From assembly GCF_011045215.1 (NCBI RefSeq), contig NZ_CP049201.1: 64,000 bases of DNA; one strand, given 5' to 3'. Under the pieces are notes generated by a model, which was given only the letters and a program-made list of their open reading frames with translations, was not told the DNA's origin and ran no database searches. Below, one piece after another: positions 29,114 to 42,642 of the stretch. Position numbers and translations under genes: made by a program. Position 1 is the stretch's first letter; the number at the start of each line of letters is the position of its first letter. The stretch comes from Escherichia coli. GTDB taxonomy: Bacteria; Pseudomonadota; Gammaproteobacteria; Enterobacterales; Enterobacteriaceae.

Positions 29114-30277
29114 ATGCTGAGACACAACGTTCCTGTGCGACGGGATCTGGACCAAATCGCCGCTGACAACGGTTTCGACTTTCATATCATCGACAATGAA
29201 ATCTATTGGGACGAGAGTCGGGCTTACCGTTTTACTCTGCGCCAGATTGAAGAGCAGATCGAAAAACCGACTGCGGAACTGCATCAGATGTGCCTTGAGG
29301 TGGTGGATCGCGCGGTTAAAGACGAAGAGATCCTGACGCAACTGGCGATCCCTCCGTTGTACTGGGATGTGATCGCTGAAAGCTGGCGCGCACGCGATCC
29401 TTCGCTGTATGGCCGGATGGATTTTGCCTGGTGTGGCAATGCGCCGGTGAAGCTGCTGGAGTACAACGCCGATACGCCGACCTCGTTGTATGAGTCGGCT
29501 TATTTCCAGTGGTTGTGGCTAGAGGATGCCCGGCGCAGCGGCATTATTCCGCGTGATGCCGATCAGTACAATGCCATTCAGGAACGCCTGATTTCGCGCT
29601 TTAGTGAGCTTTACAGTCGGGAGCCGTTTTATTTCTGCTGCTGTCAGGACACCGATGAAGACAGGACTACCGTGCTGTACTTGCAGGACTGCGCCCAGCA
29701 GGCAGGGCAGGAGTCGCGGTTTATCTACATTGAAGATCTCGGTTTGGGCGTCGGCGGCGTACTGACCGATCTTGATGATAATGTCATCCAGCGTGCATTT
29801 AAGCTGTATCCGCTGGAGTGGATGATGCGTGACGATAACGGTCCGCTGCTGCGCAAGCGTCGCGAGCAATGGGTGGAGCCGTTATGGAAAAGTATCTTGA
29901 GTAATAAAGGGCTAATGCCGCTGCTTTGGCGCTTCTTCCCTGGTCATCCTAACCTTCTTGCATCCTGGTTTGAGGGTGAAAAACCGCAGATTGCCGCTGG
30001 CGAAAGCTATGTGCGTAAACCGATCTACTCGCGCGAAGGCGGAAATGTCACCATTTTCGACGGCCAGAATAACGTCGTTGACCACGCTGATGGTGATTAC
30101 GCCGATGAACCGATGATCTACCAGGCGTTTCAACCTCTGCCGCGGTTTGGCGATAGCTACACACTCATCGGTAGCTGGATTGTCGATGATGAAGCGTGCG
30201 GAATGGGGATTCGTGAAGATAACACACTGATCACCAAAGACACCTCACGTTTCGTTCCGCATTACATTGCTGGATAA
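29114..30277 (+). CDS. yjfC: Glutathionylspermidine-synthase-like ATP-grasp protein YjfC
   Basis: 387 aa from MLRHNVPVRRDLDQIAADNGFDF; GspS synthetase-domain homologue lacking the amidase domain. Confidence 0.88.
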   Translation: MLRHNVPVRRDLDQIAADNGFDFHIIDNEIYWDESRAYRFTLRQIEEQIEKPTAELHQMCLEVVDRAVKDEEILTQLAIPPLYWDVIAESWRARDPSLYGRMDFAWCGNAPVKLLEYNADTPTSLYESAYFQWLWLEDARRSGIIPRDADQYNAIQERLISRFSELYSREPFYFCCCQDTDEDRTTVLYLQDCAQQAGQESRFIYIEDLGLGVGGVLTDLDDNVIQRAFKLYPLEWMMRDDNGPLLRKRREQWVEPLWKSILSNKGLMPLLWRFFPGHPNLLASWFEGEKPQIAAGESYVRKPIYSREGGNVTIFDGQNNVVDHADGDYADEPMIYQAFQPLPRFGDSYTLIGSWIVDDEACGMGIREDNTLITKDTSRFVPHYIAG

Positions 30278-30360
30278 GAATGTTTTAGCAATCTCTTTCT
30301 GTCATGAATCCATGGCAGTGACCATACTAATGGTGACTGCCATTGATGGAGGGAGACACA

Positions 30361-31986
30361 GTGCACTGGCAAACTCACACCGTTTTTAATCAACCTATAC
30401 CATTAAATAACAGCAACTTATACCTGTCTGATGGCGCGCTTTGCGAAGCGGTAACGCGTGAAGGTGCTGGCTGGGATAGCGATTTTCTAGCCAGTATTGG
30501 TCAGCAGTTAGGAACGGCTGAATCCCTTGAACTGGGGCGGCTGGCGAATGTGAATCCGCCTGAATTATTGCGCTACGATGCGCAAGGACGCCGTCTGGAC
30601 GATGTGCGTTTTCACCCCGCCTGGCACCTGCTGATGCAGGCGCTATGTACCAATCGGGTGCACAATCTTGCCTGGGAAGAAGACGCTCGCTCCGGCGCAT
30701 TTGTGGCGCGCGCGGCGCGTTTTATGTTGCACGCACAGGTTGAGGCGGGGTCGTTATGTCCAATAACGATGACCTTTGCCGCCACGCCATTGTTGTTACA
30801 GATGTTACCCACGCCGTTTCAGGACTGGACCACGCCGCTGTTGAGCGATCGCTACGATTCTCACTTATTGCCAGGTGGGCAAAAACGCGGTTTGTTGATT
30901 GGCATGGGAATGACGGAAAAGCAGGGCGGTTCCGATGTCATGAGCAACACCACCCGCGCAGAGCGTCTGGAGGATGGCTCTTATCGGCTGGTGGGGCATA
31001 AATGGTTTTTCTCGGTTCCGCAAAGCGATGCGCATCTGGTGCTGGCGCAGACCGCGGGCGGTTTGTCCTGCTTTTTTGTGCCGCGCTTTTTGCCTGACGG
31101 GCAACGCAACGCGATTCGCCTCGAGCGGCTGAAAGATAAGCTGGGTAATCGCTCTAACGCCAGTTGTGAAGTGGAGTTTCAGGATGCCATTGGCTGGTTA
31201 TTGGGGCAGGAAGGGGAAGGAATTCGTCTGATCCTGAAAATGGGGGGGATGACGCGTTTTGATTGCGCCCTGGGTAGCCATGCCATGATGCGCCGTGCGT
31301 TCTCGCTGGCGATTTATCATGCGCATCAACGCCATGTTTTTGGTAATCCATTGATCCAACAGCCCCTTATGCGTCATGTCTTAAGTCGCATGGCACTTCA
31401 GCTTGAAGGGCAAACGGCGTTGCTGTTTCGTCTTGCGCGAGCGTGGGACCGGCGAGCCGATGCCAAAGAAGCCCTGTGGGCGCGTTTATTTACGCCTGCG
31501 GCAAAATTTGTGATCTGCAAACGAGGTATGCCGTTTGTGGCCGAAGCGATGGAGGTGCTGGGCGGCATTGGTTATTGCGAGGAGAGCGAGCTGCCGCGGC
31601 TTTACCGGGAGATGCCGGTAAACAGTATTTGGGAAGGTTCCGGCAATATTATGTGCCTGGATGTGCTGCGCGTTCTCAATAAGCAAGCGGGCGTATACGA
31701 CTTATTGTCGGAAGCATTTGTGGAAGTGAAAGGGCAGGATCGCTATTTTGATCGCGCGGTTCGTCGTTTACAGCAGCAGCTGCGTAAGCCAGCTGAAGAA
31801 CTGGGGCGAGAGATTACTCATCAGCTATTCCTGCTGGGCTGCGGTGCGCAAATGTTGAAATATGCCTCTCCGCCAATGGCGCAGGCGTGGTGTCAGGTGA
31901 TGTTAGATACGCGCGGCGGCGTACGGTTGTCAGAGCAGATCCAGAATGATTTATTGCTGCGGGCGACGGGGGGAGTGTGTGTGTAA
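30361..31986 (+). CDS. aidB: Adaptive-response protein AidB (acyl-CoA dehydrogenase family)
   Basis: GTG start at 30361 gives 541 aa (MHWQTHTVFNQPIPL...); ACAD fold. Confidence 0.9.
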   Translation: MHWQTHTVFNQPIPLNNSNLYLSDGALCEAVTREGAGWDSDFLASIGQQLGTAESLELGRLANVNPPELLRYDAQGRRLDDVRFHPAWHLLMQALCTNRVHNLAWEEDARSGAFVARAARFMLHAQVEAGSLCPITMTFAATPLLLQMLPTPFQDWTTPLLSDRYDSHLLPGGQKRGLLIGMGMTEKQGGSDVMSNTTRAERLEDGSYRLVGHKWFFSVPQSDAHLVLAQTAGGLSCFFVPRFLPDGQRNAIRLERLKDKLGNRSNASCEVEFQDAIGWLLGQEGEGIRLILKMGGMTRFDCALGSHAMMRRAFSLAIYHAHQRHVFGNPLIQQPLMRHVLSRMALQLEGQTALLFRLARAWDRRADAKEALWARLFTPAAKFVICKRGMPFVAEAMEVLGGIGYCEESELPRLYREMPVNSIWEGSGNIMCLDVLRVLNKQAGVYDLLSEAFVEVKGQDRYFDRAVRRLQQQLRKPAEELGREITHQLFLLGCGAQMLKYASPPMAQAWCQVMLDTRGGVRLSEQIQNDLLLRATGGVCV

Positions 31987-32041
31987 GCGTATACGACTGA
32001 TGCGACGCTGGTTTCGATTAACTCAATGAAATATGTGAAAA

Positions 32042-32077
32042 TTGTAGGCCGGACAAGGCGCTCGCGCCGCATCCGGC
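32042..32077. repeat. REP element
   Basis: TGTAGGCCGGACAAGGCGCTCGCGCCGCATCCGGCA matches the REP consensus. Confidence 0.75.
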
Positions 32078-32102
32078 ATTGTTCATTTGCTGTAGATGAC
32101 AC

Positions 32103-32378
32103 TCATGCATACAGTATCGCCTGTACGCGCCAGTTATCAGGCTGCTGGTCTTCGTACATGGTAATAATGCGGTACCATGACGCACCTTGTTCATCGGCCT
32201 TTAACGCCACGATACGTTCCACGTCCTGCGGATCCCCTGAAATATTGCTAACTGAGATCTGACCTATTTCATTCAGGCCCGTCACGCAGTCAGCACTGGC
32301 GAATTCTGCAGACTGTGCCGTGGCGCTCGCAGGATAAGTCACTAATTGCAGCGAGGGTGAGGCAAGTAATTGTTTCAT
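32103..32378 (-). CDS. yjfN: DUF1471 (YhcN/BhsA family) small periplasmic protein YjfN
   Basis: 91 aa from MKQLLASPSLQLVTYPASATA; signal peptide plus DUF1471-type C-terminus (...WYRIITMYED...). Confidence 0.85.
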   Translation of the reverse strand: MKQLLASPSLQLVTYPASATAQSAEFASADCVTGLNEIGQISVSNISGDPQDVERIVALKADEQGASWYRIITMYEDQQPDNWRVQAILYA

Positions 32379-32526
32379 CGTCAGCTCCATTTTTCGTTTC
32401 CCCACATGTTGCAGGGCATTCCATCGCGGTAATAAACGCCCAGGCTTCCAGCCGGTAATTTATTGTGCACAGGTAAACGCATAGGGACGCAAAGCAATGT
32501 AAAGCTGACTATGTAAGTTGTCTGAT

Positions 32527-32856
32527 TTATTTACGGTACAAAATGGCTTGTGAATACCACTGTCCTGTCACGATGGTTTCGTCCACCATGACGACAACGT
32601 AATAATCAGCTTTTGCAGCGACAGCTTTTGCTCTGATTTCTGCTAATGCGTCATCCGGAGAACCCCGAACCATTGTGCTTACGCTACCTATTCGCTGTAA
32701 CCCTTGCGTCTGGTCGCGGCGAATCTCTTGCGGATGGTCCGTTACTGGCGGTGCTGGCTGTGGCGTACCTTGCAGTGCGCTACAGGCACTTAACATCAAC
32801 ACCAATAATAAACTGGCAAACCGGTAAATAACGCTATTACGTTTCCTGCTAACCAT
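32527..32856 (-). CDS. bsmA: Biofilm stress and motility lipoprotein BsmA (YjfO)
   Basis: 109 aa from MVSRKRNSVIYRFASLLLVLMLSAC (lipobox LSAC); DUF1471-like C-terminus. Confidence 0.85.
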   Translation of the reverse strand: MVSRKRNSVIYRFASLLLVLMLSACSALQGTPQPAPPVTDHPQEIRRDQTQGLQRIGSVSTMVRGSPDDALAEIRAKAVAAKADYYVVVMVDETIVTGQWYSQAILYRK

Positions 32857-33037
32857 AGTGTAGTGCCTTATTAATTTAACTTTGGGGGAATGTTCCCGAA
32901 TTGTTACCTGGTACGCGATTTTCGAATGAAAACGTGACGAAAGCGTAACCCACATCTCAACATTATGAACTAATACCGCCAGCAGAAACTTGTGCTAAGG
33001 ATTTCTTCATGTCATACCAGACAAAAAGGAGAGACAG

Positions 33038-33787
33038 ATGATTGAAATAGAATCACGCGAGCTGGCAGATATTCCCGTTCTTCATGCTTATCCTGTCGGA
33101 CAAAAAGATACCCCGTTACCGTGCGTGATTTTTTATCACGGCTTTACTTCGTCCAGTCTGGTGTATAGCTATTTTGCCGTTGCGCTGGCGCAGGCTGGTT
33201 TGCGGGTGATCATGCCGGATGCGCCCGATCACGGTAGCCGTTTTAATGGTGACGCAGCGCGGCGGTTAAATCAATTCTGGCAAATCTTGCTACAAAGTAT
33301 GCAGGAATTCACTACTTTACGTGCGGCAATAGCCGAAGAAAAGTGGCTGCTTGATGACCGTCTGGCAGTCGGTGGTGCGTCGATGGGCGCGATGACGGCA
33401 CTGGGGATTACCGCTCGCCACCCCACGGTGAGATGTACCGCCAGCATGATGGGAGCGGGCTATTTTACATCACTCGCCCGTTCACTGTTTCCACCGCTGA
33501 TACCTGAAACGGCAGCACAGCAGAATGAATTCAATAACATTGTCGCGCCGCTGGCAGAGTGGGAAGCGACAAACCACCTGGAACAACTTGGGGACAGACC
33601 TCTACTGCTGTGGCATGGCCTCGACGATGACGTTGTGCCTGCCGATGAATCACTACGTTTGCAGCAGGCCTTAAGCGAGACGGGACGGGATAAACTGCTA
33701 ACCTGTTCATGGCAGCCAGGCGTGCGTCACCGCATTACGCCTGAGGCGTTAGATGCTGCCGTGACATTTTTCCGCCAGCATCTTTAA
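33038..33787 (+). CDS. yjfP: Esterase YjfP (alpha/beta hydrolase)
   Basis: 249-aa ORF with nucleophile-elbow motif GGASMGA. Confidence 0.9.
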
Positions 33788-34539
33788 ACACGCAGAATGC
33801 TGACCCCTTGCGCTTCCAGTTGTTGCAGGATTTCCGGGTTAGCATTTTTGCCGGTGATAAGCATATCGATTTGATCGGCACGGCTAAAAAGCATTCCCGC
33901 GCGTTCGCCAATCTTACTGCTATCAACCAGTACCACCAGTTTCCCTACCACGCTCAGCATCTTCTGCTCTGCCATTGCTGTCAGCATATCGGTTTTATAC
34001 AACCCTTCTGCGGTCAGCCCTTTTCCGCTGGTAAACATCCAGTGCCCGGCATAGAGACTGTTTTCGCTGCCCTGCGGGCTTAAAGTGATGGACTGACTTT
34101 TGTTGTACTGTCCGCCCATAATGATCACGCTGTCATGTTCTTGATCGATCAGGTAATTTGCCAGCGGTAGATAATTAGTGATGATTTGCACTGGCTTGCC
34201 ACACATTTCCCGCCCGAGCAGAAATGCGGTAGAGCCGCAGTTGATGACCACGCTCTCGCCCGGATTGACCAGCTGTGATGCCGCTTTGGCGATACGTACT
34301 TTTTCATCGTGATTCTGCGCCTGATGCAGATTCATCGGCGTCCAGCGCGGGCGCTGTTGGGTAATAGCTTCTGCGCCATTGCGCACTTTTTTCAGTTTGC
34401 CGCTTTCGTCAAGTTTATTGATATCGCGTCGCGCAGTGGCAGGCGAAATTCCCAGACGCTCAACGACTTTCTCAACGGTCACAAAGCCCAATTGTGCGAG
34501 CATTTCCAGGAGGATTTGATGTCTTTGTGCTTCAGTCAT
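33784..34539 (-). CDS. ulaR: DeoR-family repressor UlaR of the ula regulon
   Basis: 251-aa ORF with N-terminal HTH and DeoR-C sugar-phosphate-binding domain. Confidence 0.93.
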
Positions 34540-34646
34540 GAGCTATTCCGATAAAATTTGATTTTTTTAGATGATATTTGAAATAGCCAGGAAATACTAC
34601 GCCGGATAGCGCGAACTTCTCCACGCTATCCGGTATAAACGACAGA

Positions 34647-35711
34647 TTACAGGAATGACTTGAACGGCAGATCCGGTTCAATAGTGAAGCAATCATCGAA
34701 ACCGCGCGGATAGTGGTACTCGAAGTTGTCTTTATCCAGCGGCCAGGTAAATTTGCCGCCCACCTGCCAGATAAACGGCTTGAAGCCATACTTCAGACGA
34801 TCTTTTTTCATCTCCCACAGCACGCGGATCTCTTGCGGATCGGCCTGGAAGTTTGACCAGATATCGTGGTGGAACGGGATAACCACTTTCGCATTCAGCG
34901 CTTCACCCATACGCAGCATATCGGCGCTGGTCATTTTGTCGGTAATACCGCGCGGGTTTTCGCCGTACGATCCTAACGCCACGTCGATCTGATGTTCGTT
35001 ACCGTGCTTCGCATAATAGTTAGAGTAGTGGGAGTCGCCGCTGTGATACAGGGAGCCGCCAGGCGTTTTGAACAGGTAGTTCACCGCGCGATCGTCCATG
35101 CCATCTGGCAGTACGCCAGCCGCTTTTTGATCGGCAGGCAGGGTGATCAGTGCAGTACGGTCGAAAGCATCAAGCGCATGAATTTCAATGTCTTTCACTT
35201 TTACTACATCGCCCGGTTTGACCACGATGCAACGCTCTTTCGGTACGCCCCAGCCAATCCACAAATCCACACAGGTTTTCGGTCCGATAAACGGTACGTC
35301 ATCAGCACAGTTCTGCATCACGGCAGCAGCGACGTTAACGTCGATATGATCGTTGTGATCGTGAGTCGCCAGTACCGCGTCGATCTGGCGAATCGCAAAC
35401 GGATCAAGAACAAACGGTGTGGTACGCAGGTTTGGCTGCAGTTTTTTCACGCCAGCCATGCGCTGCATCTGGTGACCCTGTTTCATTAACGGGTTACCGT
35501 GACTTTGTTTGCCAGTGCCGCACCAGAAATCAACGCAAACGTTGGTGCCACCTTCCGATTTCAACCAGATCCCGGTGCAGCCAAGCCACCACATCGCAAA
35601 TGTGCCAGGAGCGACCTGTTCTTGTTCAATTTCTTCATTCAACCAGCTACCCCACTCCGGGAAAGTGCTCAGGATCCAGGATTCACGGGTGATACTTTTC
35701 ACTTTACTCAT
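34647..35711 (-). CDS. ulaG: L-ascorbate-6-phosphate lactonase UlaG (metallo-beta-lactamase fold)
   Basis: 354 aa from [23 protein letters not shown]; HxHxDH metal motif ([10 protein letters not shown]). Confidence 0.93.
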
Positions 35712-37463
<1,752 letters not shown>

Positions 37464-37478
37464 TAAGGAGTTTTGATT

Positions 37479-37784
37479 ATGACCGTACGTATTCTGGCTG
37501 TGTGTGGCAACGGACAAGGCAGTTCCATGATCATGAAGATGAAAGTGGACCAGTTTTTAACCCAATCAAACATTGACCATACGGTAAACAGCTGCGCGGT
37601 TGGCGAGTACAAAAGCGAGTTGAGTGGCGCGGATATCATCATCGCTTCTACGCACATTGCGGGCGAAATCACCGTGACCGGCAACAAATACGTGGTTGGC
37701 GTGCGCAACATGCTCTCTCCTGCCGACTTTGGCCCGAAACTGCTGGAAGTGATCAAAGAGCATTTCCCGCAGGACGTGAAGTAA
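37479..37784 (+). CDS. ulaB: PTS ascorbate-specific EIIB component UlaB
   Basis: 101 aa from [16 protein letters not shown] (phospho-Cys motif). Confidence 0.93.
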
Positions 37785-37793
37785 GGACGCGCC

Positions 37794-38258
37794 ATGAAAT
37801 TACGTGATTCGCTGGCTGTAAATAAATCCATCCGCCTGCAGGCTGAAGCTGAAACCTGGCAGGACGCGGTGAAAATCGGCGTCGATCTGCTGGTGGCGGC
37901 GGACGTTGTCGAGCCGCGCTATTACCAGGCGATTCTGGATGGCGTTGAACAGTTCGGTCCTTATTTCGTTATCGCTCCGGGCCTGGCAATGCCGCACGGG
38001 CGTCCGGAAGAGGGCGTTAAGAAAACCGGTTTCTCTCTGGTAACGCTGAAAAAGCCGCTGGAGTTCAACCACGATGACAACGATCCGGTGGATATCCTCA
38101 TTACCATGGCGGCGGTCGATGCCAATACTCACCAGGAAGTGGGCATCATGCAGATCGTCAACCTGTTTGAAGATGAAGAGAATTTTGACCGTTTACGCGC
38201 CTGCCGTACCGAGCAGGAAGTACTGGATCTCATTGACCGCACCAACGCGGCAGCTTAA
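37794..38258 (+). CDS. ulaC: PTS ascorbate-specific EIIA component UlaC
   Basis: 154-aa ORF, PTS EIIA-2 fold. Confidence 0.93.
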
Positions 38259-38271
38259 GAAGGAATTGAAC

Positions 38272-38922
38272 ATGTCATTACCGATGTTGCAAGTCGCGCT
38301 GGACAACCAGACTATGGATAGCGCCTACGAAACCACTCGCCTGATTGCCGAAGAAGTCGACATTATCGAAGTGGGCACCATTCTGTGCGTGGGCGAAGGC
38401 GTGCGTGCGGTTCGTGACCTGAAAGCGCTCTACCCGCACAAAATCGTACTGGCAGACGCCAAAATTGCCGATGCAGGCAAAATCCTTTCGCGTATGTGCT
38501 TCGAAGCCCACGCTGACTGGGTGACGGTAATTTGCTGTGCGGATATCAACACCGCCAAAGGCGCGCTGGACGTGGCAAAAGAGTTTAACGGCGACGTGCA
38601 GATCGAACTGACCGGTTACTGGACCTGGGAACAGGCGCAACAGTGGCGCGACGCAGGTATTCAGCAGGTGGTTTATCACCGCAGCCGTGACGCGCAGGCC
38701 GCAGGCGTGGCGTGGGGCGAAGCGGACATCACCGCGATCAAACGTCTTTCCGATATGGGCTTCAAAGTCACCGTCACTGGTGGCCTGGCGCTGGAAGATC
38801 TGCCGCTGTTCAAAGGCATTCCGATTCACGTCTTTATCGCGGGCCGTAGTATCCGTGATGCCGCTTCTCCGGTGGAAGCCGCACGTCAGTTCAAACGTTC
38901 CATCGCCGAACTGTGGGGCTAA
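38272..38922 (+). CDS. ulaD: 3-keto-L-gulonate-6-phosphate decarboxylase UlaD
   Basis: ATG at 38272 gives 216 aa ([20 protein letters not shown]...); the longer ORF from 38074 overlaps ulaC in another frame. Confidence 0.93.
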
Positions 38923-38931
38923 GGAGCGGAT

Positions 38932-39786
38932 ATGTTGTCCAAACAAATCCCGCTTGGCATCTATGAAAAAGCGCTCCCCGCCGGGGAGTGCTGGCTGGAA
39001 CGCCTGCAACTGGCAAAAACGTTGGGCTTCGATTTTGTCGAGATGTCGGTAGATGAAACGGACGAGCGCCTGTCGCGCCTCGACTGGAGCCGCGAGCAGC
39101 GTCTGGCGCTGGTCAATGCGATTGTTGAAACCGGCGTGCGCGTGCCGTCCATGTGCCTTTCTGCTCATCGTCGTTTCCCGCTGGGCAGTGAAGATGACGC
39201 GGTGCGGGCGCAGGGGCTGGAGATTATGCGTAAAGCTATCCAGTTCGCCCAGGATGTCGGTATTCGCGTGATCCAGCTGGCGGGCTATGACGTTTACTAT
39301 CAGGAAGCCAATAACGAAACGCGTCGTCGTTTCCGTGACGGCCTGAAAGAGAGCGTTGAGATGGCAAGCCGCGCGCAGGTGACGCTGGCGATGGAGATCA
39401 TGGATTATCCGTTGATGAACTCCATCAGCAAGGCGCTGGGCTACGCGCACTATCTCAACAATCCGTGGTTCCAGCTCTACCCGGATATCGGCAACCTGTC
39501 GGCGTGGGATAACGACGTGCAGATGGAGTTGCAGGCCGGAATCGGGCATATCGTCGCGGTGCATGTGAAAGACACCAAACCGGGCGTCTTCAAAAACGTG
39601 CCGTTTGGCGAAGGTGTAGTGGATTTCGAACGTTGTTTCGAAACGCTCAAACAGAGTGGCTATTGCGGGCCGTACCTGATTGAGATGTGGAGCGAAACGG
39701 CGGAAGACCCGGCGGCAGAAGTGGCGAAAGCGCGTGATTGGGTGAAAGCGCGCATGGCGAAAGCGGGCATGGTGGAGGCGGCATAA
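38932..39786 (+). CDS. ulaE: L-ribulose-5-phosphate 3-epimerase UlaE
   Basis: 284-aa ORF, TIM-barrel sugar-phosphate epimerase. Confidence 0.93.
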
Positions 39787-40472
39787 TGCAAAAGCTAAAA
39801 CAGCAGGTGTTTGAAGCCAACATGGATCTGCCGCGCTATGGGCTGGTGACCTTTACTTGGGGCAACGTCAGCGCTATCGACCGCGAACGCGGGCTGGTGG
39901 TGATCAAGCCCAGCGGCGTTGCCTACGAAACCATGAAAGCGGCCGATATGGTGGTGGTTGATATGAGCGGCAAGGTGGTGGAAGGGGAGTATCGCCCATC
40001 TTCCGACACTGCGACGCATCTCGAACTCTACCGTCGTTACCCGTCGCTTGGCGGCATTGTCCATACCCACTCCACTCATGCCACCGCATGGGCGCAGGCG
40101 GGGCTGGCGATCCCGGCGTTAGGCACCACGCACGCTGACTACTTCTTTGGTGATATCCCGTGTACGCGTGGATTAAGCGAAGAAGAGGTGCAGGGTGAGT
40201 ATGAACTGAACACTGGCAAAGTGATTATCGAAACGCTGGGCAACGCCGAGCCGCTGCATACGCCGGGAATTGTGGTGTATCAGCACGGACCGTTCGCCTG
40301 GGGGAAAGATGCCCACGATGCGGTGCATAACGCGGTGGTGATGGAAGAAGTGGCGAAAATGGCGTGGATTGCGCGCAGTATTAACCCACAACTCAATCAC
40401 ATCGACAGCTTCCTGATGAATAAACACTTCATGCGTAAACACGGTCCTAACGCTTATTACGGGCAGAAGTAA
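39786..40472 (+). CDS. ulaF: L-ribulose-5-phosphate 4-epimerase UlaF
   Basis: 228 aa from [20 protein letters not shown]; class II aldolase/epimerase fold; start overlaps the ulaE stop by 1 nt. Confidence 0.93.
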
Positions 40473-40600
40473 AACACGCGCTGCGGAAATTTCCTTCTTC
40501 GGGAGATAACTGGTCTAATTCCGCAGCCGTTTTTCAAAAAAAGCCCCCTGCGAAGGGGGCAAAGCAAACTATGGCAATGTTTCGTTGGTTATACCTGGTG

Positions 40601-40876
40601 CTAGCGATAAATATCCGCGCTGGCGTGCATATTGCCGTTACTCCCCGGTTCCCGCATCAGAATTACGTGGTAGTACGTTGCGCCTTGCGCATCTGTTTCT
40701 TCATTTAATGCCTGACGTGCTTCGCTTTCAGTGGCGAAATTATGATTGATATAAATCACGCCTAAGCTTTGCACATCGTCCATATTTCTGGCCTGGTGGT
40801 TATTAATTTCAATGGCTGCCCATGTATTTGCACTTAGCAAAAGCACAGCCAGAAGGGCTAAAACACGACTGAACAT
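40601..40876 (-). CDS. yjfY: DUF1471 (YhcN/BhsA family) small periplasmic protein YjfY
   Basis: 91 aa from MFSRVLALLAVLLLSANTWA (signal peptide); DUF1471-like. Confidence 0.85.
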   Translation of the reverse strand: MFSRVLALLAVLLLSANTWAAIEINNHQARNMDDVQSLGVIYINHNFATESEARQALNEETDAQGATYYHVILMREPGSNGNMHASADIYR

Positions 40877-41184
40877 ACATACCTCCTCGACGGCTGACTT
40901 TGTGTGCTCTCCTCTGTGATGATCTTCTGATTTAATTTTAATCAATGATAAAGAAGTTGATGGTGACCATTTCTGATGCAGTTGTTCAAAAAAACACCAT
41001 GATGAAGTGTGATGAACTTCAAATCAGCGTGTTAGTCCACTTTGGTGAAAGATGAGATTTATTTGTCGGCTGGCCTTGAGTTTAGCGGGGTATGTCAGTA
41101 CTATAACGCGTCATTTTTCAGCCGACCTTTAACACGTTCCTTGCCTCCCCGGGATTCGGCTGACCCAGACAGGAGGCTGAATAA

Positions 41185-41598
<414 letters not shown>

Positions 41599-41604
41599 TT
41601 TCTG

Positions 41605-42151
<547 letters not shown>

Positions 42152-42180
42152 TCGGTCACGGTCCATTAATACGACTTTGA

Positions 42181-42642
<462 letters not shown>

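Follow-up and report, generated by a model that had tools for sequence, protein, structure and literature searches.

The 64-kb stretch of DNA analysed here (the window) belongs to an E. coli chromosome, its best genome match showing 99.1% identity over 10 kb, and the region is held by 5425 of the 5426 complete E. coli genomes. The genes in the window follow the order aidB - yjfN - bsmA - yjfP - ulaR - ulaG - ulaABCDEF - yjfY - rpsF - priB - rpsR, and three of them are the subject of this work:

32103-32378, minus strand: yjfN coding sequence, 91 aa (ORF list, ATG start, Pfam 63.4 bits, RefSeq annotation, AlphaFold model)
32527-32856, minus strand: bsmA (yjfO) coding sequence, 109 aa (ORF list, Pfam 56.9 bits, NF011433 152.7 bits, lipobox)
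40601-40876, minus strand: yjfY coding sequence, 91 aa (ORF list, Pfam 71.6 bits, match to SrfN 2jna, signal-peptide hydrophobicity)

An earlier sequence-only reading had placed three reading frames of these lengths at exactly these positions, with yjfN and bsmA adjacent and yjfY lying beyond the ula genes; the ORF list, with ATG starts, and the gene order agree with it in full. The entries in the program-made ORF list are longer than the genes, as they begin at the first possible start codon. In the closest E. coli genome, the RefSeq names of the three products are 'DUF1471 family protease activator YjfN', 'biofilm peroxide resistance protein BsmA' and 'DUF1471 family protein YjfY'. A search of the six-frame translation of the 64-kb window with the family HMM yielded no fourth DUF1471 copy or relic, a simple scan detected no sigma-70 promoter-like site near yjfN, bsmA or yjfY, and an Rfam scan of positions 30000-42500 returned the RpsF leader only, with no RNA element tied to the three genes.

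All three proteins pass the gathering score (27 bits) of Pfam PF07338 (YdgH/BhsA/McbA-like, formerly DUF1471), a model of 55 positions that is covered almost entirely by the C-terminal ~56 residues of each protein:

32109-32276, minus strand: DUF1471 domain of YjfN, residues 35-90 (Pfam)
32533-32700, minus strand: DUF1471 domain of BsmA, residues 53-108 (Pfam)
40604-40774, minus strand: DUF1471 domain of YjfY, residues 35-91 (Pfam)

The DUF1471 identity proposed from the sequence thus stands for all three, but the accompanying YhcN label does not hold in its strict sense. The BsmA equivalog of NCBIfam (NF011433, cutoff 100 bits) singles out the 109-aa reading frame, with YjfN (51.0 bits) and YjfY (31.9 bits) falling below its cutoff, and the YhcN equivalog (NF033776, cutoff 125 bits) is reached by none of the three proteins (51.8, 27.1 and 51.1 bits). 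Hence, these are paralogues of YhcN and not YhcN itself, and 'YhcN family' is correct merely as a loose synonym of DUF1471. The architecture that the same reading had described, an N-terminal export signal followed by a C-terminal domain, agrees with inspection of hydrophobicity, lipobox and AXA motifs, by which the signal is clear in YjfY and BsmA and marginal in Escherichia YjfN.

An AlphaFold2 model of YjfN, built from a 120-sequence family alignment (mean pLDDT 82.6), adopts the compact alpha+beta fold of DUF1471 known from SrfN, YahO and YdgH, comprising a hairpin of strands, a single long helix and two further strands at the C-terminus (E37-47, H50-63, E68-76, E82-90). Its top Foldseek matches in the PDB are solved DUF1471 domains (YdgH-I 2m2j, SrfN 2jna, YdgH-III 4evu and SrfN 2ma8), with target-normalised TM values of 0.82-0.86 against 2m2j and 4evu and of 0.53-0.65 against the longer SrfN chains 2jna and 2ma8; the stress sensor RcsF (2y1b) ranks next. 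By sequence, the closest solved relative of YjfY is SrfN (2jna, E=9.7e-7). The family is small, its profile matching 566 clusters (50% identity) at E<=1e-3 among 1.84 billion representatives, and it has been described as comprising roughly twelve subfamilies confined to the Enterobacteriaceae, with a fold resembling RcsF (Eletsky et al. 2014, PMC4092069). Ten DUF1471 genes are known in E. coli (PMC4092069, PMC12096828); besides the three studied here, K-12 carries rclB, yahO, ybiJ, mcbA, bhsA, ydgH and yhcN, and ybiJ and mcbA lie only 4 kb apart in that genome, on the same strand.

Two features flank the yjfN reading frame:

32385-32388, minus strand: Shine-Dalgarno GGAG, 6 nt upstream of the yjfN ATG (read from the sequence)
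32048-32077, minus strand: REP-like GC-rich hairpin in the convergent aidB/yjfN spacer, downstream of the yjfN stop (fold)

Since GGAG lies 6 nt 5' of the ATG at 32378, the 91-aa start of yjfN is favoured over an upstream GTG (100 aa). The REP-like hairpin is present in the fold, with an overall z of only -1.3; it was not picked up by the inverted-repeat finder, and the terminator scan found no T-run terminator after yjfN. Residues 1-21 of YjfN, ending in ATA/Q, were judged by inspection and hydrophobicity to be a weak signal peptide, weaker than those of BsmA and YjfY (over orthologues, its maximum 9-residue Kyte-Doolittle mean has a median of 2.09). The Escherichia version, MKQLLASPSLQLVTYPASATA, contains two prolines and reaches just 1.19, which makes it marginal and degenerate with respect to other genera. 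The mature protein, on the other hand, is nearly invariant across genera (AQSAEFASADCVTGLNEIG...), and YjfN in the window is identical to that of another Escherichia locus (L010) and one residue off the E. coli representative (L008).

This conservation extends to the very end of the protein. YjfN in the window terminates in ...AILYA, and of 79 orthologues 70 finish with YA and eight with YV, the sole exception being cut short where its contig stops. The remaining K-12 paralogues terminate in K or R, and a basic or polar residue, typically as Y-R or Y-R-K, closes nearly all orthologues of YjfY and BsmA. Kim et al. are said to have reported in J Bacteriol in 2018 that the YjfN tail engages the PDZ domain of the protease. 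YjfN is described in PMC12096828 (ref. 79 therein) as a suicide activator of DegP that makes use of its hydrophobic C-terminal Ala and is itself degraded, and a preprint likewise reports activation of DegP and shows that of DegQ in vitro (bioRxiv 10.1101/2024.12.25.630354). As read from the orthologues, the invariably hydrophobic C-terminus matches this published role.

The 148-bp spacer between bsmA and yjfN contains a putative regulatory site:

32489-32503, plus strand: CpxR-box-like motif GCAAAGCAATGTAAA, one mismatch to GTAAA-N5-GTAAA

The consensus for CpxR binding is GTAAA-N5-GTAAA, and the whole 64-kb window holds just seven matches to it with one mismatch or fewer. The motif begins 110 nt upstream of the yjfN ATG, and 74 of the 77 orthologous bsmA-yjfN spacers contain such a box with one mismatch or none, at an equivalent position in nearly all of them and often extended by a third half-site. 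This candidate CpxR box is a consensus match, and it belongs to yjfN itself. Its conservation can be set beside the available literature, in which yjfN is listed as Cpx-regulated (PMC5428311) and appears as a member of the CpxR iModulon in a ChIP-based study that did not detect direct binding or include it among the direct CpxR targets (PMC7657598). Taken together, the conserved box and the Cpx literature on yjfN lead us to infer that the two neighbours are independently regulated, in spite of their adjacency. The yjfN gene would have a Cpx-type envelope-stress promoter region to itself, YjfN would be exported as a soluble periplasmic protein, and its hydrophobic end (YA/YV) would activate DegP and, in vitro, DegQ, while YjfN is degraded in the process as a 'suicide activator', the biochemistry of this scheme being taken from the literature.

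The N-terminal half of BsmA differs from what had been anticipated:

32782-32793, minus strand: BsmA lipobox LSAC, residues 22-25, with Cys25 (pattern inspection)
within 32527-32856, minus strand: BsmA proline-rich tether, residues 26-52, ~27 residues (sequence)

The three proteins had been described as small periplasmic paralogues, a designation that can be retained for YjfN and YjfY, taken here as soluble periplasmic, but not for BsmA. A lipobox that closes the signal peptide and includes an invariant Cys ([LVI][ASTVI][GAS]C; LSAC, LSGC, LTGC and similar) is present in 78 of 80 BsmA orthologues, and the two exceptions correspond to a pseudogene and to an LNGC variant. The residue at position +2 is S in 67 orthologues, T in 10 and Q in one, and it is never Asp. 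Between Cys25 and the domain there is a conserved proline-rich stretch, LQGTPQPAPPV.DHPQEIRR. The lipobox, its invariant Cys and the lack of Asp at +2 predict Lol-dependent sorting to the outer membrane, and BsmA is thus predicted to be a tethered, lipid-anchored, probably outer-membrane protein and not a soluble periplasmic one. Acylation would take place at Cys25, and after sorting the ~27-residue tether would keep the DUF1471 domain in the periplasm. As cited in PMC4783026, Weber 2010 found bsmA mutants to be affected in biofilm, in motility and in their tolerance of acid and peroxide. The suggestion of stress-specialised roles for these genes agrees with the literature, in so far as the sources portray YjfN as a Cpx-regulated DegP activator and report biofilm, peroxide and acid phenotypes for BsmA (PMC12096828, PMC5428311, PMC4783026).

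YjfY presents a simpler picture. It bears a canonical Sec signal peptide (residues 1-20, ...NTWA/A, with an AXA site) of high hydrophobicity (Kyte-Doolittle 3.2, with a median of 3.17 over orthologues), its core, RNMDDVQSLGVIYINHN, is highly conserved, and the gene is followed by a strong terminator, convergent with ulaF, 41 nt past the stop:

40543-40560, minus strand: intrinsic terminator hairpin GCCCCCTTCGCAGGGGGC plus T-run (terminator scan)

This terminator indicates that yjfY is monocistronic. YjfY would be a DUF1471 protein that a strong Sec signal delivers in soluble form to the periplasm, encoded by a gene with a terminator of its own.

The homology of the three proteins, which an alignment without detectable similarity would have called into question, is apparent only in part from pairwise comparison. 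BLASTP aligns YjfN and BsmA at 30% identity (E=4e-8) and BsmA and YjfY weakly at 22% identity (E=1e-3), and it returns no alignment for YjfN and YjfY. Comparison with hhalign of subfamily profiles, built from 69 YjfN, 77 BsmA and 62 YjfY distinct orthologues, gives probabilities of 97.3% for YjfN-BsmA, 95.6% for YjfN-YjfY and 83.1% for BsmA-YjfY, from which it follows that all three are homologous, as had been proposed, and that profiles are required to show it for the complete set.

The same profiles also convey how the three proteins are arranged within the family. Among the K-12 paralogues, the BsmA profile gives its highest score to YjfN (33.5 bits), followed by YhcN (18.3), and the YjfN profile favours YhcN (34.7), then BsmA (27.4) and YjfY (24.5). 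The YjfY profile, in turn, ranks YdgH-I (26.4) and YhcN (24.9) first and leaves YjfN (13.3) and BsmA (10.0) well behind. In a neighbour-joining bootstrap (300 replicates, 67 core columns, 86 taxa), for which the subfamilies were populated from the best 150 of the 566 family members, each of the three subfamilies is monophyletic in 272-297 replicates. YjfN and BsmA are grouped together in 100 of 300 (33%), which is weak and nonetheless the best-supported grouping, and YjfY joins YdgH-I in 39 and the complete set of YdgH domains in 79, adding up to 118 of 300. No replicate unites YjfN, BsmA and YjfY. An exclusive pairing of YjfN with YhcN was also considered and rejected (0 of 300). Distances between subfamilies are saturated, at 1.4-2.8 substitutions per site and in all cases above 1.3.

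Adjacency of yjfN and yjfO had already been given as support for expansion by gene duplication (Eletsky et al. 2014, PMC4092069), and the present data are compatible with that view: yjfN and bsmA plausibly constitute an old tandem duplicate pair. Against this sister relation stand the weak bootstrap value on 67 columns and the higher score of YhcN with the YjfN profile. On profile scores and tree topology, yjfY is placed on a different branch, nearer to YdgH domain I, YhcN and SrfN, and stands apart from the yjfN/bsmA duplication, so that its proximity speaks of an old cluster or of co-location and not of a recent copy. Duplication, which had been suggested for the whole cluster on the grounds of proximity, is hence a plausible account of the tandem pair but not of yjfY. 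The clustering itself is not random. Were ten loci scattered randomly over a 4.64-Mb circle, any three of them would fall within 8.8 kb, as the DUF1471 loci do here, with a probability of ~0.0013, and the remark that three paralogues gather within about 9 kb was well founded.

Conservation of the locus across genera adds a temporal dimension to these relationships. Scanning a single genome for each of 100,044 species with BsmA as the seed recovered 80 loci, among them representatives of Escherichia, Salmonella, Citrobacter, Enterobacter, Klebsiella, Raoultella, Kluyvera, Lelliottia, Leclercia, Trabulsiella, Buttiauxella, Franconibacter, Pluralibacter, Silvania and Huaxiibacter. Almost all the loci are titled as Enterobacteriaceae genera, in keeping with the restriction described for the family; an 'Erwinia' MAG, a 'Proteobacteria' MAG and one record under the title Chryseobacterium seemingly fall outside this group. 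In 79 of the 80 loci yjfN adjoins bsmA, and yjfY is present wherever the locus sequence reaches that side, save for Franconibacter locus L078 and the Erwinia-labelled MAG (L081), which has bsmA alone. The order yjfY-(ula)-yjfP-bsmA-yjfN-aidB is kept across some 15 genera of Enterobacteriaceae at least. From the saturated distances and this conserved synteny across genera it follows that all the splits are ancient and not recent.

The ula genes are not always part of this order. The whole block from ulaR to ulaF (~7.4 kb) is missing in 16 loci (L025, L029, L035, L043, L049, L050, L052, L062, L069, L071, L073, L074, L077, L078, L079 and L082), which are patchily distributed within genera. All but one of the 16 have yjfY at 0.1-1.4 kb from yjfP, mostly as its immediate neighbour, and the sixteenth is the Franconibacter locus that also has no yjfY. 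The three DUF1471 genes of the other 15 genomes span ~2-3.3 kb (mostly ~2 kb), separated by nothing but the esterase gene yjfP, and the ula regulon is thus a presence/absence block inside an otherwise tight DUF1471 cluster. Comparison of the window with Citrobacter, Salmonella and Enterobacter gives dN/dS values of 0.07-0.17 for all three genes (Nei-Gojobori).

With high confidence, we read the locus as a set of ancient DUF1471 paralogues, among which yjfN and bsmA are a probable tandem pair and yjfY belongs to another branch, each of them specialised. The paralogues would have become fixed before the Enterobacteriaceae radiated, and purifying selection would have maintained them thereafter in a conserved neighbourhood, rpsF-yjfY-[ula regulon]-yjfP-bsmA-yjfN-aidB. 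The earlier reading carried a different model implicitly, in which a single burst of local duplication gave rise to all three genes, followed by their divergence. Their non-random clustering on the same strand, their proximity in genomes devoid of ula, where only yjfP separates them, and their homology at the profile level are all in its favour, and the saturated distances could conceal the true topology. Nonetheless, the absence of a three-gene clade from every bootstrap replicate, the preference of the YjfY profile for YdgH-I and YhcN over YjfN and BsmA, and the failure of BLASTP to match YjfN with YjfY make such a burst very improbable. One may argue, conversely, that only the adjacency of yjfN and bsmA is meaningful and that the proximity of yjfY is a coincidence, devoid of duplication or functional significance. 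The phylogenetic separation of YjfY from the other two is in line with this notion, as are its own terminator, its position beyond an unrelated 7.4-kb sugar regulon and the retention of bsmA without yjfY in Franconibacter (L078) and in the Erwinia-labelled MAG (L081). Against it must be weighed the probability of ~1e-3 for three of ten loci falling within 8.8 kb, a linkage of yjfY that is conserved across genera and becomes tighter where ula is missing, and the existence in K-12 of a second loose pair, ybiJ/mcbA, 4 kb apart, which suggests that local duplication is the usual mode of the family. We regard coincidence as unlikely, though it deserves more consideration than the other alternatives.

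Decay of at least one of the three reading frames into a non-functional duplicate has also to be contemplated, in view of the degenerate signal peptide of Escherichia YjfN, of the two in-frame stops that interrupt bsmA in E. albertii NBRC 107761 and of the fact that YjfY has no known phenotype. This is extremely improbable, given that all three frames are intact in the window and show the low dN/dS values reported above, that mature YjfN is nearly invariant across genera and that both the biochemistry of YjfN and the phenotypes of BsmA have been published. Returning to the reading of ancient, specialised paralogues, a bolder version of it can be entertained, although we consider it quite doubtful: yjfY-yjfP-bsmA-yjfN might represent an ancestral islet for envelope quality control, in which bsmA and yjfN, both derived from one module, would have undergone sub-functionalisation. 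If so, a tether would hold one of the two at the outer membrane, and the other would be soluble, Cpx-induced and able to activate a protease through its hydrophobic tail; DegP/DegQ or the turnover of outer-membrane proteins would also be targets of BsmA, and perhaps of YjfY, and the weak signal peptide of Escherichia YjfN would tune the amount of activator entering the periplasm.

The genes, their family, the adjacency of yjfN and bsmA and the idea of duplication are all already published, and beyond correct annotation the importance of the locus is small. The modest additions made here are the placement of yjfY outside the yjfN/bsmA duplication, the recognition of ula as a presence/absence block, the prediction of BsmA as a tethered lipoprotein and the retention across genera of both the hydrophobic C-terminus of YjfN and the CpxR-like box. 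Conservation across genera of the YA/YV ending and of the Cpx-like box is newly shown and supports the generality of the DegP-activator mechanism, and the added details could steer experiments on the biochemical roles of BsmA and YjfY.

Viewed against known systems, the three proteins conform to the DUF1471 family (PF07338) at large, with an export signal (marginal in Escherichia YjfN) followed by a ~55-residue C-terminal alpha+beta domain, multiple paralogues per genome, a taxonomic range that coincides with the Enterobacteriaceae and members linked to stress and biofilm. No difference is seen at the family level, and what is documented here pertains to the subfamilies: BsmA has its lipobox and tether, YjfN its hydrophobic C-terminus and YjfY its separate branch. 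The closest solved relatives are YdgH/SssB and SrfN of Salmonella, YjfY matching SrfN (2jna) and the YjfN model matching YdgH-I (2m2j, TM 0.82). YdgH, however, is made up of three tandem domains, whereas YjfN, BsmA and YjfY have a single domain each, and SrfN is virulence-linked and does not occur in E. coli. With respect to the published DegP 'suicide activator', YjfN in the window ends in the required hydrophobic Ala, and no difference was found.

A more distant likeness is that to RcsF, an outer-membrane stress-sensor lipoprotein (2y1b). The YjfN model shares with it a small alpha+beta fold (Foldseek E=8e-3, TM 0.51-0.53), and BsmA resembles it further in being a predicted lipoprotein with a flexible N-terminal tether. 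There is, on the other hand, no detectable sequence homology (12% identity in the structural alignment), and RcsF has redox-active disulfides that DUF1471 proteins do not possess (PMC4092069). The resemblance thus suggests a possible mode of action for BsmA without establishing membership, and by analogy with the RcsF fold BsmA may contact outer-membrane proteins.

Comparison of the fetched loci, drawn from one genome per species, reveals that the entire ula (ascorbate) regulon is present or absent as a clean block at the yjfP/yjfY position. The features of the window and of K-12 discussed here are the following.

32048-32077, convergent aidB/yjfN spacer: REP-like GC-rich hairpin, GCCGGAUGCGGCGCGAGCGCCUUGUCCGGC
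32316-32378, minus strand: YjfN signal peptide, residues 1-21, MKQLLASPSLQLVTYPASATA
32489-32503, bsmA-yjfN spacer: CpxR-box-like motif, by consensus match
33784-40472 (~7.4 kb), between yjfP and yjfY: ula regulon, ulaR-ulaG-ulaABCDEF
41121-41205, yjfY-rpsF divergent spacer, upstream of rpsF: RpsF leader, full length (110 bits to Rfam RF02893)
K-12 NC_000913.3 837665-842056 (L003): DUF1471 paralogues ybiJ and mcbA, same strand

The ula block is absent from 16 fetched loci (L025, L029, L035, L043, L049, L050, L052, L062, L069, L071, L073, L074, L077, L078, L079 and L082), and its presence is patchy inside Citrobacter, Enterobacter, Kluyvera, Raoultella and Buttiauxella. Such a distribution within genera implies that the block has been lost or gained repeatedly, with the same junctions each time. 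The DUF1471 cluster itself is conserved, with only two departures among the fetched loci: Franconibacter helveticus (L078) keeps yjfP-bsmA-yjfN and is missing yjfY, and in a metagenome-assembled genome labelled Erwinia (L081), which is without yjfN, yjfP and yjfY, bsmA adjoins a partial ula block in which ulaE and ulaF were not detected. In Escherichia albertii NBRC 107761, the reading frame of bsmA (L013:8002-8328) is interrupted by two stop codons (DHP*EIRR and TGQ*YSQ), which makes the gene a pseudogene in that strain; yjfN and yjfY are intact there.

The CpxR-box-like motif is kept in 74 of the 77 orthologous bsmA-yjfN spacers, often with a third half-site 10 bp beyond it, which suggests that Cpx controls yjfN directly, although the gene is absent from the direct CpxR targets listed by a ChIP study (PMC7657598). 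On the other side of yjfN, a terminator scan found no canonical T-run terminator downstream of the gene. Compared with Escherichia or Citrobacter, the distance from aidB to yjfN is ~2.1 kb greater in loci of Enterobacter, Lelliottia, Leclercia and Silvania, as it is in a small number of further lineages such as Huaxiibacter (L023) and Franconibacter (L078), and in these loci (L019, L023, L028, L033, L034, L037, L038, L041, L042, L047, L053, L055, L059-L061, L069, L073, L075, L078, L083, L084 and L086) a putative ~2 kb insertion separates the two genes. The RpsF leader upstream of rpsF is expected and ordinary.

The YjfN signal peptide of Escherichia has a hydrophobicity far below that of its counterpart in other genera (MKRSLALTSLLLSAGLVSTTA), and the N-terminus is even shorter, and weak, in some lineages (L045, L046, L051, L073 and L076). 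Judging from these predicted peptides, the efficiency of YjfN export may differ between lineages.

Finally, ybiJ and mcbA, 47% identical and lying 4 kb apart with ybiI, ybiX and fiu between them, form a second, loose cluster of the DUF1471 family in K-12.
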